This document shows positions 20,935 through 59,691 of a stretch of DNA of 61,350 nucleotides, piece by piece (the first letter of the stretch is position 1; every line of letters starts with the position of its first letter). Under the pieces are notes generated by a model that worked only from the letters and a program-made list of their open reading frames with translations, was not told the origin of the DNA and searched no databases. Location of the stretch: assembly GCA_937968125.1 (NCBI GenBank), contig CALBUI010000046.1, positions 1 to 61,350 of the forward strand, read 5' to 3'. Origin of the DNA: an uncultured Anaerolineales bacterium (GTDB taxonomy: Bacteria; Chloroflexota; Anaerolineae; Anaerolineales; UBA4823). The position numbers and the translations under genes were made by a program.

Positions 20935-22152
20935 TTGGAAATGAATATCGAAGAACAGGTATCTTACTTGATGCGCGGCACGGAGTATGGGGATGAGGAA
21001 TTAAAAGAGGCGATGGCTGACGAGCTGCACCAACGGTTGGTCGAAGCACAGAACGAGGGACGGGTACTGAAAGTCTACTGCGGGTACGATCCAACCAAAT
21101 CTGATCTTCATCTGGGACATACCATAACGATGCGCAAACTGCGCCAGTTCCAAGAGTTGGGTCATGAAGTGACTTTCCTGATCGGGACTTATACATCTTT
21201 GATCGGTGATCCTTCAGATAAGAATAAGCTGCGTCCCCAGCTGACCCCGGAGGAAGTCGAACACAATGCCCAGACCTACGCCCAGCAGGCGTTCAATATC
21301 CTCGATCCAGAAAAGACCCAGATCCGTTACAACGCTGAATGGCTTTCCCAATTGAATTTCGCAGATCTGATCAGACTGGCCTCAAATTTCACCCTCCAGC
21401 AGTTCATTTCCCGAGAAAATTTCAAACTGCGCTGGGAAAAAGGCGATGCAGTATACCTGCATGAAACCTTTTACGCCATTATGCAGGGATATGATGCCTA
21501 TTCCTTGAAAACCGATGTGCAGGTGGGTGGAACAGACCAGCTGTTCAATATCGTCACCGCAGCGCGCAAGGTGATGACCTCCCTGGGTGAAAAACCGAAC
21601 ATTGCCGTCATCATGGGTATCTTACCCGGCACCGATGGTGAAATCCGCATGAGCAAATCTCTTGGCAATCACATTCCTATCCTGGCCCCCCCGGATGAAA
21701 TGTATGGCAAGGTGATGAGTTTGCCCGACAAGGCGATGGGCGTCTATTTCCGCCTGGCGACCCGCTTGTCAGCAGCTGAGATAGATCAATTGGAAGCCGG
21801 CATCGCAGATGGAAGCCTGCACCCTCGGGATGCAAAAATGAAGCTGGCCCGTGAGATCGTGGAGATCTTCCACGATCAGCAAGCCGCGCTGGATGCTGAG
21901 AAGAATTTCGTGCGCGTATTCCAAAAGCACGATCTACCAGAAGATATGCCTGAGTATGCCTTGCAGAGTGGGCAGACCGTGCTGGATGTGCTCGAGGCCA
22001 GCGGCATGATCAAGTCGCGCAGTGAAGGCCGGCGGCTGATCAACCAGAAGGGGGTTCGGTTGGACGGCGAGGTGCTCGACGATCCCAACCAGCCTTTTCC
22101 GCATGCCGGAGTGCTGCAGGCTGGTAAGCGGCGATTTACCAAGGTCAATTAA
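20935..22152 (+). CDS. tyrS: Tyrosine--tRNA ligase
   Basis: GYDPT, HLGH, GGTDQ, RMSKS, C-terminal S4 domain; RBS AGGAGGT. Confidence 0.97.
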   Translation: MEMNIEEQVSYLMRGTEYGDEELKEAMADELHQRLVEAQNEGRVLKVYCGYDPTKSDLHLGHTITMRKLRQFQELGHEVTFLIGTYTSLIGDPSDKNKLRPQLTPEEVEHNAQTYAQQAFNILDPEKTQIRYNAEWLSQLNFADLIRLASNFTLQQFISRENFKLRWEKGDAVYLHETFYAIMQGYDAYSLKTDVQVGGTDQLFNIVTAARKVMTSLGEKPNIAVIMGILPGTDGEIRMSKSLGNHIPILAPPDEMYGKVMSLPDKAMGVYFRLATRLSAAEIDQLEAGIADGSLHPRDAKMKLAREIVEIFHDQQAALDAEKNFVRVFQKHDLPEDMPEYALQSGQTVLDVLEASGMIKSRSEGRRLINQKGVRLDGEVLDDPNQPFPHAGVLQAGKRRFTKVN

Positions 22153-22158
22153 TTTTTC

Positions 22159-22197
22159 AAACCCGCCGGCTGTTGTTCATTAGCCAGCGGGTTTTTT
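22159..22197 (+). terminator. tyrS terminator
   Basis: AAACCCGCCGGCTG...TAGCCAGCGGGTTT stem with T-tract. Confidence 0.8.
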
Positions 22198-22207
22198 CTT
22201 GAAGTTG

Positions 22208-22267
22208 TCAGGTGCCACGCACTTCCAAAGCATGTCCTGAGCTTGTCGCAGGGTGCATGGCACCTGA
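22208..22267. repeat. REP-like palindromic element
   Basis: TCAGGTGCCACGCAC / GTGCATGGCACCTGA, 14 of 15 inverted match, around a 30-nt loop. Confidence 0.65.
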
Positions 22268-22290
22268 TTACTATATCCAGGCAGGATCAC

Positions 22291-22320
22291 TTGACTTGAG
22301 AACAAACGTTCTATTATAAT
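22291..22320 (+). promoter_or_regulatory. sigma70 promoter with embedded LexA (SOS) box
   Basis: TTGACT (22291-96), 18-nt spacer, TATAAT (22315-20); AGAAC-AAAC-GTTCT at 22299-22312. Confidence 0.88.
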
Positions 22321-22359
22321 GAGACTATCATTTGTCCTGACGAGTAAAGGCCTGTTCCT

Positions 22360-22764
22360 ATGACCATCTGGCAGCGAGTTCTGCGTGTTCTGGGGTATGC
22401 CCCTTCATCACGCCTGGCATTCCATGCGGATGAAGAACTGCTCCAATCCCTGCAGACCATCGCTGAGCGCGAACAGCGCCGTACCGGCGAGATCGCCTCT
22501 GAATTGCTCAGCTCAGCTTTGGCCCGGCGCCAGGTGGATGATGGGCTTGTGGATCATTGGCGATTTCTTTCTCCCCGTGAACAGCAGGTGGCAGCTCTGA
22601 CCTGCCTGAACTTCACCAACCGCCAGATTGCCGCCAGGCTGATGATAACCCCGGAAACTGCCAAGACGCATGTGCGCAATGTGCTGCGCAAATTTGACCT
22701 GCACAGCAAGGCGGAATTGCGCCGGGCGCTGGCTGATTGGGATTTCAGCGCCTGGCTTCAGTGA
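22360..22764 (+). CDS. LuxR-type HTH regulator with N-terminal ribbon-helix-helix-like region (no receiver domain)
   Basis: LSPREQQVAAL...TNRQIAARLMITPETAKTHVRNVLRKFDLHSKAEL. Confidence 0.9.
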   Translation: MTIWQRVLRVLGYAPSSRLAFHADEELLQSLQTIAEREQRRTGEIASELLSSALARRQVDDGLVDHWRFLSPREQQVAALTCLNFTNRQIAARLMITPETAKTHVRNVLRKFDLHSKAELRRALADWDFSAWLQ

Positions 22765-22827
22765 ACGGCTCGTTTTTCCCCTCTACTCCTATTCACCCGC
22801 GCGGTTACTCCGAACATTCCCTGCCTC

Positions 22828-22872
22828 TCCCCTGTAAATGGGATTGTCCTCCCTTACTATTTGGGCTAAGTT
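22828..22872 (+). promoter_or_regulatory. Possible activator-dependent, leaderless promoter
   Basis: TCCC-N8-GGGA dyad abutting TTGTCC-N17-TAAGTT; GTG start 6 nt after the -10; no SD. Confidence 0.4.
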
Positions 22873-22878
22873 AGGGAT

Positions 22879-23418
22879 GTGAATACGCTGCTCAACCCAA
22901 CTCCGGGGGATTTACTGTTAGTAATAGCGCCGCATGCAGGCGGTGCGATTATGTGGGAGCTGATCGCCCGCCTGGCTTGCCGGGGCACCGTACGCCTGTT
23001 GGATGGCGGCAATCGTTTCGATGTCTACCGGTGCAATCTGGCGGTAGGGCATGCCCTGGGTGGCCAGACAGGCGATCTGCCAGCCGTCCTGGAACGCATT
23101 CACCTGGCGCGTGCGTTTACCTGCTACCAGCTGGTGGCGCTGTTGAAGCAGACGCCCACAGAGCCAGTCCCCACGCTAGTTCTGGACTTGCTGTCCACAT
23201 TTTATGATGAAAATGTATCTACAGCGGAGAGCTTGCGGTTGCTGCGGGATTGTCTTGCTCAATTGCAGCGATTAAATCACCTGGCGCCGGTCGCCATCAG
23301 CGCTCGCCCGGGCCTGCCTGACAATCGTCCTGAGCTGCTGGAGGCGCTGATGGGGGCTGCCGGTCAGGTCTGGACATTAGAGCCAAACGTGCCCAAGCCA
23401 CCTCCTCGATTGTTCTGA
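22879..23418 (+). CDS. Inactive RecA/RadA-fold protein (ImuA-analogous; PolB2-associated type)
   Basis: VRLLDGGNRFD, LERIHLARAFTCYQL, Walker B-like TLVLD; Walker A degenerate (APHAGGAI). Confidence 0.75.
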   Translation: MNTLLNPTPGDLLLVIAPHAGGAIMWELIARLACRGTVRLLDGGNRFDVYRCNLAVGHALGGQTGDLPAVLERIHLARAFTCYQLVALLKQTPTEPVPTLVLDLLSTFYDENVSTAESLRLLRDCLAQLQRLNHLAPVAISARPGLPDNRPELLEALMGAAGQVWTLEPNVPKPPPRLF

Positions 23419-23465
23419 GGTGCAGGGCACAAAAAGAAGTTGAGAGAGGTTTTTACAAACTGCCT

Positions 23466-23750
23466 ATGGGACGCACACTACCTTCGATCACACAAGCTTT
23501 TTTGCAAGAGCAAGAATCCTTTTCCCGCTTCCGGCGCGCTTTGCGACGCAGCGATCAGCTGGCGCTGGACGACCTGTTTGCCGCAGCCCACAAACACCTG
23601 GCCGCGGCGGCGTATGCAGCTCACGCACTGCCATTTGAAACTTTTTTGCTGGCCATGCTGCTTGAGGAGCACAAGGAAGTCCAACGCCTGCGCGGGTTGC
23701 TCGAGAACCGTTTGGGAGCGGGAAATGGGGGGACAGCAGGGAAATTCTAG
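23466..23750 (+). CDS. Small helical protein of the PolB2-associated type (arCOG07300-like)
   Basis: MGRTLPS...FRRALRRSDQLALDDLF...H...PFETFLLAMLLEEHK pattern, recognised from memory. Confidence 0.75.
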   Translation: MGRTLPSITQAFLQEQESFSRFRRALRRSDQLALDDLFAAAHKHLAAAAYAAHALPFETFLLAMLLEEHKEVQRLRGLLENRLGAGNGGTAGKF

Positions 23751-23771
23751 ATCAACAAGCCCTGTAGTCCA

Positions 23772-23805
23772 ATACTTTGACAAAGTATCTTATACATGTT
23801 AAACT
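23772..23805 (+). promoter_or_regulatory. mtnA operon promoter with palindromic operator
   Basis: TTGACA(23777-82)-N17-TAAACT(23800-05); perfect palindrome ATACTTTG-A-CAAAGTAT at 23772-23788. Confidence 0.75.
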
Positions 23806-23862
23806 CAGTCCGCTTTTGGCAGGAAGGTGTCTCCATGTGGGGACGCTTTGAAAGGGTTAAAA

Positions 23863-24918
23863 ATGCGGACAGTTACCTGGGATTACACTCACCAGCAAGT
23901 TAAGATGATCGATCAAAGGCTGCTGCCGGGAGAATTCCGGGAAGTCAGCTTCACGAGATACGAACAGGTCGCGGACGCAATCCAAACGATGGTTGTGCGC
24001 GGTGCCCCGGCAATCGGGGCATCGGCCGCGTTTGGGATGGCGTTGGCTGCGCAAACCTCTTCTGCGAGCGATATCCAAGAGATGCGAGCCGACCTGGCTG
24101 CTGCGGGAGAAGTGCTGCGTGCAGCACGCCCGACGGCTGTCAACCTCGCCTGGGCAGTTGAACGTATGTTGGAGGCGGCCGGCGACCCGGGAATTGACGA
24201 CGTTCGCTCTCTGCAAGCTGGCATGCTCGATCTGGCGCAGCGTATTGCCGATGAGGACGTGGAGATCAACAAACGCATGGCCACACACGGGGCCAACATG
24301 ATGCAAGAGAATGAGGTCGTCATCCATCACTGCAACACAGGCGCCCTGGCGACTGTCGATTGGGGCACAGCATTGGGTGTGATCAGGATGGCGCATGAAC
24401 AAGGCAAACACCCGCATGTGCTGGTTGATGAAACTCGGCCGCGTTTGCAGGGTGCACGCCTGACAGCCTGGGAACTTGAGCAGTATGGAGTTTCCTATGA
24501 GATCATCACCGACAATGCCGCGGGATACTTCTTGAGCAGCGGAAAAGTAGACCGCGTGCTGGTAGGCGCTGACCGGGCGGCGGCAAACGGAGACGTGGCC
24601 AACAAAATCGGAACCTACATGCTGGCCTTGGCGGCGAAGGATAACCAGGTGCCATTTTTTGCTGTGGTGCCAACTTCTACTGTCGATCTAAAGATTCCGG
24701 AGGGGAAACAAATCCCGATCGAGGAGCGAAATCAGGATGAAGTTTTGAACATTGAGGTGAAAGGCGAGCAAGTTGCACCCGGGGGCGCGGCGGCCCGCAA
24801 TCCTGCTTTCGATATCACCCCTAATCGATTAATCACCGGGATCGTGACTGAGAACGGGGTTGTCTACCCGCCATTTGAAATGAACCTTCATCAGGCGGTT
24901 AGGGGTAGCCAATGTTGA
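23863..24918 (+). CDS. mtnA: Methylthioribose-1-phosphate isomerase
   Basis: IDQRLLP, MVVRGAPAIG, RPTAVNL, HCNTGALAT, ETRPRLQGARLT, NKIGTY, NPAFDITP. Confidence 0.96.
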   Translation: MRTVTWDYTHQQVKMIDQRLLPGEFREVSFTRYEQVADAIQTMVVRGAPAIGASAAFGMALAAQTSSASDIQEMRADLAAAGEVLRAARPTAVNLAWAVERMLEAAGDPGIDDVRSLQAGMLDLAQRIADEDVEINKRMATHGANMMQENEVVIHHCNTGALATVDWGTALGVIRMAHEQGKHPHVLVDETRPRLQGARLTAWELEQYGVSYEIITDNAAGYFLSSGKVDRVLVGADRAAANGDVANKIGTYMLALAAKDNQVPFFAVVPTSTVDLKIPEGKQIPIEERNQDEVLNIEVKGEQVAPGGAAARNPAFDITPNRLITGIVTENGVVYPPFEMNLHQAVRGSQC

Positions 24919-27203: not shown

Positions 27204-27340
27204 TCAAACAAAATCATTCCTCGCCATTTTGAGCATTGCGTTCAAAGAAGATTTTAAACAAATATCCCAATTCATTCACCTGAAAAGGTGACCTCGAACT
27301 GGGATTATTTATTATTATTCGAGAATAGCTGCTTTTGGAA

Positions 27341-28381
27341 CTATTTACGCAAAACTAATGGTATATAGTTGTGATTCCACCGGAAGATCCAAATCGTTTC
27401 AAAGTCTGAGTAATTTCCTGCCAGATCAATAGCCTGAGCAAAAATCTGGTTCCAGGCCATGTTTATCGAATTGCTGTCGATTGTAGTCGTATATGGCGCC
27501 TGGCAGACCTTATCTAGATTGTGGAAGACCATTGTTGTCGCATCCCAGCGGAGGAAATCGACACAATCTACCTGGAAGTTGTCTTGAACGGACACTTCTA
27601 AAGGGATAGTTTCATTGACAATCTCATAAGTATCACCAGTCTCAACGGGTGAAACCCAGATCAGGTTTGGAGGGGATTGGTCGGCGATAGTGATTGATGC
27701 AGTTGAGCAATCTCCATCACCATCACAGACTGAATAAGAAAACTGGTCGAATCCAAGGAAGGAAGGATGGGGAGTATAAGTAATTGTGTCATCGGGAGCA
27801 GGATTAATGATATAGGAACCATTTGTGGGCTCGCTGATGACACCTAATTGGAGTGGTGTATCGTCCAAAGCAAAATCATTTTGCAGAACAGGAATTACTA
27901 TGGGTGAATATCCATTAATTGGTGGGTAATCATCATTAGCAATTGGTAGCGCATCATTAATATTGGTGAGGGACACCGTGGGCATCTCGAGATTGCCAAA
28001 CAAAGGATCTGCGCTGGTAACGGAACCAAATACCTGGTAGAGGACATCCCCATCCTGAATGCCATCCGCGATCCCAGTGACCTCAATAGTGCGAGGTTTA
28101 TCCCAAGTTCCCTGGGTGAATACGACTGAAGTGGGCAACACTGTCCCTTCAGAGAGATCACTGCTATATAAATCGATCTTCACATTGGCAGTTGGCAAGC
28201 TGTCTAAGACGATAGTAAAAGAATCGCTGCTGCCGTTCTCATCGGTGAATAATCCTTCAGTAGGGGAGACGAGGATAGCTGCGGTTATTTCAGCATTCGC
28301 AGGATGAGTACGCATGCTTAACAGAACAACTAGAATAATGGAGATTGAAGCAATGATTGAAGCGAGAGATCTTTGGCTCAT
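27341..28381 (-). CDS. Secreted Ig-like/cadherin-like repeat protein
   Basis: Signal peptide (..PANA), Calx-beta-like region, PIANDD...VLQND...YTP..F.G.DQFSY repeat, Ig domain, C-terminal YIPLVLRK. Confidence 0.82.
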   Translation of the reverse strand: MSQRSLASIIASISIILVVLLSMRTHPANAEITAAILVSPTEGLFTDENGSSDSFTIVLDSLPTANVKIDLYSSDLSEGTVLPTSVVFTQGTWDKPRTIEVTGIADGIQDGDVLYQVFGSVTSADPLFGNLEMPTVSLTNINDALPIANDDYPPINGYSPIVIPVLQNDFALDDTPLQLGVISEPTNGSYIINPAPDDTITYTPHPSFLGFDQFSYSVCDGDGDCSTASITIADQSPPNLIWVSPVETGDTYEIVNETIPLEVSVQDNFQVDCVDFLRWDATTMVFHNLDKVCQAPYTTTIDSNSINMAWNQIFAQAIDLAGNYSDFETIWIFRWNHNYIPLVLRK

Positions 28382-28513: not shown

Positions 28514-28527
28514 AGAACGCTGGTTCT
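28514..28527. promoter_or_regulatory. Candidate LexA box
   Basis: AGAAC-GCTG-GTTCT in a divergent intergenic region, 3 nt downstream of a minus-strand TGnTATAAT (28531-36). Confidence 0.5.
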
Positions 28528-28633: not shown

Positions 28634-29581
28634 ATGAGCGCGATTCTGGTAACGGGAGGGACTGGCTTCATTGGACAGGCCCTGGTGCGCCATCTGGCGG
28701 ATGCTGGACACAACGTCAGGATATTATTACGGGCTTCTGCCCAATCACCTAACCTTCCCATCAGTTTGCCGGTCGAGGTTGCCATCAGTGGTCTCAATGA
28801 TGAGCGTGGTTTGCGCGCGGCAATGGTTGGCATCGATATCGTTTATCACCTGGCGGGTGCAGAATGGCGAGGTGCATACGCCAGCTTGATGGAAATTGAT
28901 ATCCAGGGAACTCAAAACATTGTCGCAGCTGCCGCAGATGCGAAGGTGAAACGGCTGTTCTTTGTCAGTCATCTGGGTGCCGACCGGGCTTCTGCTTATC
29001 CAGTTTTGAAGGCCAAAGCCATCGCCGAGGAGAATATTCGCCGAAGCGGGATTGATTTCACGATCATGCGCACCGCGATTGTTTTCGGCAACAACGACGG
29101 GTTTACCACGGGTTTAGCCCAGCTAATTTCCAGCATTCCGGGATTCTTTTTTGTTCCCGGAGATGGGGAAAATCTATTACAGCCATTATGGGTGGAGGAC
29201 CTAGCGACCTGTCTGGTTTGGGCATTGGAAGATGAGCGGACATTCAATCAGATGTTTGAAATTGGAGGACCGGAATATTTGACCTTCAATCAGGTTGCCC
29301 AAATAGTGATGGAGAAATTGAACTTGCGCAGGAGATTTGTCCACCTGCGACAGCCATACCTGCGTGCCTTGACCGTATTCATGGAGAATTTACTGCCCGC
29401 GACACCAGTATCAGTCTATTGGTTGGATTATCTGGCGACCAACAGAGCCAGCAACCTGGATGCCATTCCACGGTTTTTTAATTTGATGCCCTCCCGTTTG
29501 TCACAAAGATTGGCATACCTGGAAAGTCGGGATTGGCGGCGAGATATGTGGCGAAATGTCATCCGCCGCAGGGGAAGATGA
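28634..29581 (+). CDS. NAD(P)-binding SDR/epimerase (NDUFA9-like)
   Basis: ILVTGGTGFIG, Y...KAIAE, QPLWVEDLA, EIGGPE. Confidence 0.88.
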   Translation: MSAILVTGGTGFIGQALVRHLADAGHNVRILLRASAQSPNLPISLPVEVAISGLNDERGLRAAMVGIDIVYHLAGAEWRGAYASLMEIDIQGTQNIVAAAADAKVKRLFFVSHLGADRASAYPVLKAKAIAEENIRRSGIDFTIMRTAIVFGNNDGFTTGLAQLISSIPGFFFVPGDGENLLQPLWVEDLATCLVWALEDERTFNQMFEIGGPEYLTFNQVAQIVMEKLNLRRRFVHLRQPYLRALTVFMENLLPATPVSVYWLDYLATNRASNLDAIPRFFNLMPSRLSQRLAYLESRDWRRDMWRNVIRRRGR

Positions 29582-59663: not shown

Positions 59664-59691
59664 AGTTTAGCACAGATGTTCTGTTTGTCAA
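59664..59691 (-). promoter_or_regulatory. recA promoter with LexA box
   Basis: Minus strand TTGACA-N16-TAAACT; AGAAC-ATCT-GTGCT (59669-59682, one mismatch) lies in the spacer. Confidence 0.85.

Follow-up and report, generated by a model that had tools for sequence, protein, structure and literature searches.

A LexA-boxed three-gene cassette of an Anaerolineales bacterium as the probable accessory half of a PolB2 translesion mutasome

What is the function of three small genes that follow a promoter in which a LexA-type palindrome fills the spacer? The question was raised by contig CALBUI010000046.1 of assembly GCA_937968125.1, an uncultured Anaerolineales bacterium of the Chloroflexota, the 61,350 nucleotides (nt) of which are called the window here. 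The genes g1, g2 and g3 are co-oriented open reading frames (ORFs) between tyrS and mtnA, behind the promoter P1 with its SOS box; the two flanking ORFs, of 405 and 363 amino acids (aa) respectively, were identified by eye only. In our study, the cassette was found to be, very probably, the accessory half, under SOS control, of a translesion mutasome of the bacterial PolB2 type, whose catalytic subunit would be a PolB2-type DNA polymerase encoded on another contig (C203) of the same genome. The analysis shows the anatomy of the cassette and the folds, how the genes are linked, that the box is conserved and that selection is purifying.

P1 was found to read TTGACT-TG-AGAACAAACGTTCT-AT-TATAAT (the sequence at 22290-22321 is cTTGACTtgAGAACAAACGTTCTatTATAATg). 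Its hexamers matched 11 of 12 positions in the promoter scan, which called four promoter-like sites in 22050-23950 against 0.9 expected. The perfect box between the two hexamers and the three co-oriented genes between tyrS and mtnA had both been claimed by a sequence-only reading of the window, and both were confirmed, the flanks by eye. The same reading had taken the recA promoter of the window as an internal control with the same architecture. The layout is indeed the same, since the minus strand reads TTGACA-aac-AGAACATCTGTGCT, with a -10 element TAAACT that overlaps the box, and the ORF behind it is RecA (Pfam, 8.5e-134). The box there is not perfect; it carries one mismatch (GTGCT), and the exact box pattern missed it for this reason. 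Within the lineage of the window the ratio of nonsynonymous to synonymous substitution rates (dN/dS) was 0.06-0.13 for g1, 0.07-0.14 for g2 and 0.00-0.04 for g3, and the purifying selection on all three genes is strong.

The linkage of PolB2, an inactivated RadA and the small protein arCOG07300 was described by Makarova et al. (2014; PMC4104785), who noted the same trio in several bacteria, sometimes with lexA. The two partners were named iRadA and PPB2 by Timinskas et al. (2025; PMC11791011). The product of g2 had no Pfam or NCBIfam match in the local libraries, and its 432 homologues were all unnamed. Its AlphaFold2 (AF2) model had a mean predicted local distance difference test score (pLDDT) of 89.7 and a predicted template modelling score (pTM) of 0.85, with strand 1 starting at residue 13. 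The top matches of this model in the PDB by Foldseek were RAD51 paralogues, RAD51 and RadA (E 3e-7 to 8e-6, TM 0.60-0.72, probability 1.00). The position of the P-loop was found to be degenerate (Table 1), and the Walker A pattern GxxxxGK[ST] was present in none of the 79 complete g2 homologues. Judged by the model, g2 is an iRadA, that is, a RadA/Rad51 ATPase core without the nucleotide site. The C-terminal end of g2 is a probable beta-clamp-binding tail; 57 of the 79 homologues ended in [LM][FLW] within the last four residues, and two read QLSLPL or QLRLPF. Clamp motifs on bacterial iRadA are described in section 3.3.3 of PMC11791011. A collection entry 100% identical to g2 (P0002) contained 155 aa, 87% of g2, and was read as starting at Met25 of g2; a start at the GTG at 22879 agrees with the conservation of the first 24 residues, with the modelled strand 1 and with the promoter block described below (22879-22950). 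The prediction of a complex between the C203 polymerase (alignment A3) and g2 (A1) gave a score of 0.30 and a mark of 0.32 in a run without controls, and it has no weight either way.

The product of g3 starts with the MGRT arm that is defined for PPB2 in section 3.3.1 of PMC11791011, where the arm is said to contact both PolB2 and iRadA. A (M/L/V)GRT start was found in 74 of 74 homologous g3 ORFs. The model of g3 contained three helices (residues 8-25, 28-49 and 56-87) behind a free N-terminal arm. More than 4800 homologues were found, and PF26485 was present on all 120 among the matches listed. The Atlas name of PF26485 is DUF8156, which was carried by 30 of 30 Atlas matches; the DUF8156 clusters of the Atlas came from Nitrospirota, Myxococcota and Methanobacteriota, and one cluster was 71% Archaea. 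This family match rests on precomputed labels, the local Pfam library being without PF26485, and we infer that DUF8156 equals arCOG07300. In one clade (L038, L040, L042-L044, L047, L049, L051, L052, L054, L055, L057, L059, L061-L065) PPB2 was found to be 139-166 aa long with a C-terminal extension, mostly ending in ...(I/L/M)N(F/M/L)HG.

The partner polymerase of 764 aa was encoded at C203:19489-21783, with a LexA box of its own 52 nt upstream. It matched Pfam DNA_pol_B (1.5e-26), and its best PDB relatives were archaeal PolB proteins (Pyrococcus PolB, 7e-43), whereas E. coli Pol II followed at 6e-7. The YVD of this polymerase aligned with the catalytic DTD, and LH[LM]YVDG was conserved in 46 of the 48 complete homologues.

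The neighbourhood of g2 was surveyed at 80 loci that had been found with g2 among the GTDB species genomes; almost all were from metagenome-assembled genomes (MAGs) of Anaerolineae. These loci are related by descent, and the counts over them therefore overstate the independent support. In 74 of the 80 loci g3 was the next gene after g2, and in 61 a homologue of the C203 polymerase came next after g3; in L081 the polymerase stood immediately behind g2. The g1 gene preceded g2 in 39 loci. The 19 loci without the g2-g3-polymerase order comprised 11 close relatives of the window (L008-L016, L018, L019), four g2-only loci (L035, L037, L039, L060), three cut or degenerate loci (L056, L075, L087) and L081. 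In the g2-only loci a perfect LexA box was followed by the g2 homologue, and the 6 kb downstream contained neither g3 nor a polymerase; they may be a stand-alone iRadA variant. Two contigs under archaeal MAG names (L048 and L069) contained the bacterial-type g1-g2-g3-polB2 operon together with LexA boxes. A PPB2 profile (A2; 24 Anaerolineae sequences, too narrow for archaeal arCOG07300) found nothing in 200 further genomes from the phylum to which one of these MAGs is assigned, which suggests misplaced bacterial contigs; L048 and L069 are probably mis-binned Anaerolineae contigs.

In the lineage of the window the layout was tyrS-g1-g2-g3-mtnA. In four of five relatives with this layout polB2 was found elsewhere in the genome, with a box of zero or one mismatch 53-58 nt before the start of the match; with this query it was undetected in the fifth, G005. 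In this lineage polB2 thus appears to have moved to another locus and to have kept its own LexA box. The locus of G005 (L019), with a g3 98% identical to ours, contained a g2 cut to residues 61-179 and had no g1, no box and no upstream tyrS, which reflects either degeneration of the system or an error of assembly. L019 and the undetected polB2 of this close relative are what would be expected if the cassette of the window, too, were a decaying remnant after the loss or move of polB2. We regard that as improbable in the extreme, as the reading frames are intact with dN/dS within 0.00-0.14, the promoter is conserved and polB2 is present. The move of polB2 may also be read as a functional uncoupling, in which iRadA-PPB2 would work alone or with another polymerase. 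In haloarchaea, iRadA and arCOG07300 are reported to occur also as gene pairs that have no polymerase (PMC4104785), and the four g2-only loci point in the same direction. However, polB2 was kept with its own LexA box in the genome of the window and in four of the five split relatives, the MGRT arm is unchanged and purifying selection is strong, so that uncoupling is improbable. A PolB2 mutasome split over two loci remains the preferred explanation.

LexA binds GAAC-N4-GTTC in Firmicutes, Actinobacteria and Dehalococcoides. In the window this 12-mer occurred four times against 0.99 expected, and at least four occurrences were found in 3 of 100 shuffles. The 14-mer AGAAC-N4-GTTCT occurred nine times in perfect form in the 4.26-Mb assembly and 84 times with at most one mismatch. 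Seven of the nine perfect sites were found in A+T-rich, promoter-like flanks just 5' of an ORF start (the flanks were read by eye, C46:28514 being left out of this reading), and C180:17380 had no convincing ORF downstream. In the same genome, boxes with at most one mismatch preceded recA, uvrA, a radical-SAM/HhH repair protein, a GyrI-like protein and a glyoxalase/bleomycin-resistance-like protein; promoter-embedded 14-mers also preceded the C203 polymerase and a paralogue of g1 on contig C198. In 69 of the 80 orthologous loci the 300 nt before the first gene of the operon contained a box with at most one mismatch, and in 43 a perfect one, whereas the genome-wide rate of boxes with at most one mismatch was about 0.007 per 330-nt window (84 sites per 4.26 Mb). 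The significance of the SOS box comes from its context and conservation and not from the count of its core.

Could the palindrome be the operator of another repressor, for example g1 itself? A DNA-binding protein is encoded right behind the box, LexA binding is a prediction, and lexA is only partly assembled. Against this stand the same motif before recA, uvrA and other repair genes and the box before most of the operons that have no g1 (counts below); an operator of another repressor is therefore highly improbable, and LexA remains the expected ligand. Of LexA itself, about 60 C-terminal residues were found (TIGR00498, 2.5e-12, below the cut-off), at a point where contig C161 breaks off. Two other candidates for lexA were rejected: a 172-aa ORF that matched Pfam LexA_DNA_bind only at the cut-off (23.8 bits) and is AsnC/Lrp-like by eye, and an ORF at the start of contig C38, beside a box with one mismatch, which is not LexA. 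A literature search on the SOS regulon of Chloroflexi gave no paper that looked relevant by title or abstract.

Further boxes were observed beside these. A second perfect box of the window, AGAACGCTGGTTCT at 28514-28527, is followed by GATTATAAC and lies 106 nt before a 315-aa ORF (28634-29581), which looks like an NAD-dependent epimerase/dehydratase by eye and may be a further SOS gene. Contig C75 contained two perfect boxes 9 nt apart (27262 and 27285) before a 267-aa ORF (region 27262-28127; L003:5263-6128), whose sole match was weak and FtsK/SpoIIIE-like (0.0011, below the cut-off); it may also be an SOS gene. Near-identical spurious peptides (...CEAIS.LGDCHAAR..LAARNDRHLGSDVRFFVRRSG...) were found just 5' of three SOS-box promoters of this genome, at C75:26792-27261, C159:4695-4901 and C137:5198-5455 (minus strand), which indicates a short repeat family adjoining these promoters.

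The first gene of the cassette, g1, contained a GerE/LuxR helix-turn-helix (HTH) in residues 70-120 (Pfam GerE, 4.5e-13). A profile of 25 g1 homologues matched only the C-terminal domains of NarL, VpsT and VraR, with NarL at 8e-13. No family match was found for residues 1-65 by Pfam, NCBIfam or the profile, and there was no receiver or ligand-binding input domain. By these matches, g1 appears to be not a response regulator but a stand-alone HTH protein whose short N-terminal region is its own; a C-terminal WDFSAW motif was conserved (alignment A4). The 16 strongest g1 matches were examined from 60 genomes evenly drawn from the order together with the genome of the window. Twelve were followed by g2 and four stood alone, and a box with at most one mismatch was present within 300 nt 5' of 14 of the 16, which makes the g1-type proteins a distinct family of regulators preceded by SOS boxes. 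The paralogue on C198 (156 aa, C198:1990-2501, L001:1990-2501) showed 56% identity to g1 over residues 6-133 and a GerE match of 3.9e-13; it stands behind its own perfect AGAACAAGCGTTCT box and is followed by a glycosyltransferase-like ORF, with no mutasome genes.

The spacer between g1 and g2 was found to be conserved among relatives far above the neutral expectation. It contained two inverted repeats, IR1 and IR2, and a putative internal promoter, P2 (Table 1). The half-sites of IR1 were conserved across loci and its centre was variable. The -10 element of P2 ends only 6 nt before the GTG of g2, so the mRNA of g2 would be leaderless; this element is weak, and P2 was not called by the promoter scan for that reason. 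We stacked 47 sequences at the start codon of g2, the rows being chosen for having g1 or the block. The stack leans towards the pattern, because in five loci the start was re-set to an in-frame codon behind the block. It showed TAnnnT at -12 to -7 and GGGATTG at -39 to -33, which corresponds to a TTG -35 element with a 17-nt spacer, followed upstream by a CCCC-N4-7-GGGG inverted repeat abutting the -35 and by a second repeat near -86 to -68. The conservation was partial, with at least 1 bit at five of seven positions of GGGATTG and at three of six positions of TAnnnT (-12, -11 and -7).

The presence of g1 was found to go with the kind of control element before g2. Of 79 loci, 39 had g1 and 40 had not. 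A box immediately preceded g2 in 2 of the former and in 31 of the latter, and the strict block pattern was present in 26 and 8 of them respectively (one of the eight truncated and four kin of g1-bearing loci); this contrast is not a statistical test, because the loci are related. The replacement of the LexA box by the block where g1 is present suggests a cascade from LexA through g1 to the mutasome. We put forward, tentatively and at rather less than even confidence, that in roughly half of the PolB2 operons of Anaerolineae LexA would repress only g1, and that g1 would bind IR1/IR2 and open the internal promoter, to yield a leaderless transcript of iRadA-PPB2(-PolB2). In the genome of the window the strict pattern of IR2 with promoter was found only at the g2 site, as two overlapping matches, and at one site that opens no ORF. 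For further targets of g1, the loose inverted-repeat patterns were too common genome-wide (143, 158 and 56 matches), and a composite IR1+IR2 expression was rejected as too strict, having missed even the site of the window.

Table 1. Coordinates of the features of the cassette and of the recA control promoter in the window
Feature	Position	Strand	Description
Terminator-like hairpin CCCGCCGGC / GCCAGCGGG	22162-22197	+	3' of tyrS; 12-nt loop, then T6; by eye
Promoter P1	22291-22320	+	-35 TTGACT 22291-22296; 18-nt spacer; -10 TATAAT 22315-22320
LexA-type SOS box AGAACAAACGTTCT	22299-22312	+	between -35 and -10 of P1
g1, 134 aa	22360-22764	+	stand-alone LuxR/NarL-type HTH regulator (predicted)
Inverted repeat IR1 CACCCGCGCGGTTAC	22794-22808	+	in the g1-g2 spacer; candidate regulator site
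Inverted repeat IR2 TCCCC-TGTAAA-TGGGA	22828-22843	+	abuts -35 of P2; candidate regulator site
Putative internal promoter P2	22844-22872	+	-35 TTGTCC 22844-22849; 17-nt spacer; -10 TAAGTT 22867-22872
g2 (iRadA), 179 aa	22879-23418	+	GTG start; inactive RadA/Rad51-core protein (by model)
Degenerate P-loop position APHAGGA	22927-22947	+	residues 17-23 of g2; strand 1-helix 1 loop; no Lys, no Ser/Thr
C-terminal PPRLF tail of g2	23401-23415	+	candidate beta-clamp-binding motif
g3 (PPB2; arCOG07300 / DUF8156), 94 aa	23466-23750	+	three helices
MGRT N-terminal arm of PPB2	23466-23477	+	g3 starts MGRTLPSIT
recA promoter	59664-59691	-	internal control; SOS box with 1 mismatch at 59669-59682

The main rival to the action of g1 on IR1/IR2 is a role of the spacer at the RNA level. 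Here the cassette would be a single polycistronic operon under LexA only, g1 would be merely co-transcribed, and the spacer would act on the single P1 transcript through folding, processing or a translation signal. Contigs of RNA libraries (four runs from three studies, depth about 2) covered parts of g2, and two of them bridged the gene junctions, one from the 3' end of g1 into g2 (22738-23152) and one between g2 and g3 (23334-23484). No terminator-like site was found between g1 and g2 by the scan, hairpins are possible from IR1 and IR2, and a conserved G-run at -5 to -2 could be a short-spaced ribosome-binding signal. However, the RNA contigs may be DNA carry-over at this depth and allow no conclusion on expression, and the body of g1 was covered by none of them. 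The half-sites (CCCC/GGGG) were conserved in sequence and not through compensatory change, the TTG and TAnnnT of the stack stand at fixed promoter distances, and most of the loci without g1 are without the block and have the LexA box directly before g2. We consider a purely LexA-driven operon with an RNA-level spacer unlikely, though it deserves to be weighed seriously beside the regulation of the spacer by g1. Upstream, the hairpin 3' of tyrS is the putative boundary of the cassette; the scan did not list it, presumably because of its loop limit of 8.

Several results weigh against the identification of the cassette as half of a PolB2 mutasome under LexA control. The confidence of the g3 model was middling (pLDDT 75.8), it had no PDB neighbour at E <= 0.001 by Foldseek, and the homology of g3 to the archaeal arCOG07300 rests on the DUF8156 label and not on an alignment; the empty search with the narrow PPB2 profile belongs here too. 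For a putative loss of the exonuclease site, the C203 PolB2 showed only the absence of a Pfam match to an exonuclease domain and a weak alignment in its N-terminal part. The bare 12-mer was unenriched genome-wide (46 against about 65 expected from composition). Only the C-terminal piece of lexA was present in the assembly, which is 80% complete, and the binding of LexA to the box and the damage induction of the cassette are predictions from the sequence. The kinship of the 80 loci has been mentioned. No experiment on any bacterial PolB2 complex was found in the parts of the literature searched.

With these points weighed, the mutasome half remains very probable, and its mode of action can be proposed from the known families. 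After DNA damage RecA would be activated, LexA would cleave itself, and the two promoters, P1 and that of polB2, would open. PolB2, iRadA and a PPB2 trimer would then assemble, the complex would be brought to the clamp through the iRadA tail, and it may extend past lesions or mismatches by analogy with Sulfolobus Dpo2. With lower confidence, g1 would act on IR1 and IR2 and drive the leaderless internal promoter before g2.

The testable claims of the sequence-only reading were all borne out. The first gene, called a DNA-binding regulator, has the GerE HTH; the second, called a RecA/RadA fold without the P-loop lysine, was upheld by the AF2 model, Foldseek and the absence of Walker A; the third, called PolB2-partner-like, is of the arCOG07300/PPB2 type and has the MGRT arm, the three helices, the DUF8156 label and a PolB2 neighbour in relatives. 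The palindrome was read as an SOS box, in agreement with the motif common to the recA and uvrA promoters, and the survey gave both the iRadA-PPB2-PolB2 linkage and the conserved box. Two corrections are needed. The module is not self-contained, since its polymerase lies on another contig behind its own LexA box, and it is not undescribed, since the bacterial iRadA-PPB2-PolB2 operon and its lexA link are in print (PMC4104785, PMC11791011). The order iRadA-PPB2-PolB2 is the sole gene order reported for bacteria in section 3.1 of PMC11791011. The same paper describes the three-helix PPB2, the MGRT arm, the lost first aspartate of DxD and the clamp motifs on iRadA, and reports that lexA is enriched in bacterial PolB2 neighbourhoods. 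A 2026 survey in Nucleic Acids Research (NAR; PMC12926913) also treats PolB2 as a known bacterial group. All testable features of the published system were found here, which settles what the cassette is and places it in a kind that was known before.

The cassette resembles the described bacterial PolB2 operon, for example the four-gene locus with lexA of Leptospirillum ferriphilum, in its inactive RadA, its three-helix PPB2 of about 90 aa with the MGRT arm, its family B polymerase with the first catalytic aspartate replaced, the order iRadA-PPB2-PolB2, the SOS link and the clamp-type tail on iRadA. It differs in that polB2 is encoded elsewhere, behind a LexA box of its own, in that a LuxR-type gene heads the cassette, and in that the SOS control lies in an operator inside the promoter and not in a neighbouring lexA gene. 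The words 'LuxR', 'Chloroflex' and 'Anaerolin' had 0 occurrences in the main text of PMC11791011, its supplementary tables not being covered. The split, doubly LexA-boxed layout and the block of g1 and inverted repeats were absent from the main texts searched, and the supplements of PMC11791011 may contain them.

The imuA-imuB-dnaE2 cassette, like the present one, serves mutagenesis under LexA control and includes a RecA-like, non-recombinase protein, but its polymerase is of the C family, its ImuB is Y-family-like, and it has no homology to PPB2 or PolB2. The operon of Sulfolobus Dpo2 (PolB2) encodes the same three protein families. It is archaeal and without a LuxR-type gene, its clamp would be PCNA and not the beta clamp, and its induction goes through archaeal factors and not LexA. 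Dpo2 is damage-induced, needed for damage-induced mutagenesis and an extender in translesion synthesis (PMC11791011, introduction; abstracts). Lesion or mismatch extension is known from genetic and biochemical work only for Dpo2. The E. coli Pol V mutasome (umuDC with RecA) likewise combines a mutagenic polymerase repressed by LexA, a subunit of the RecA family and a small oligomeric accessory protein, an analogy drawn in the abstract of PMC11791011; unlike the cassette, it contains a Y-family polymerase and an active RecA, and UmuD is unrelated to PPB2. The C203 PolB2 can also be compared with E. coli Pol II (polB/dinA), an SOS-induced family B polymerase (PMC11791011, introduction), but Pol II acts as one subunit and its exonuclease is active.

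Two genes that would pass as hypothetical, having no local Pfam or NCBIfam match, can now be annotated as helper subunits of PolB2, which would be a horizontally acquired translesion polymerase of the archaeal type. The operators of Anaerolineae provide direct evidence for the membership of this system in the SOS regulon, for which the earlier argument rested on nearby lexA genes. The three-gene unit was found to split without losing its co-regulation, which is a caution for operon searches that require adjacency. The g1 gene with its inverted-repeat block offers a concrete handle on the gating of a mutagenic polymerase downstream of LexA. In E. coli mutagenesis is gated by the late induction of umuDC and by the cleavage of UmuD. 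If the g1 cascade is true, it would delay and gate the error-prone polymerase, and would solve the same problem in a different way; in the lineage of the window polB2 itself would then stand outside the gate of g1 and answer to LexA directly.

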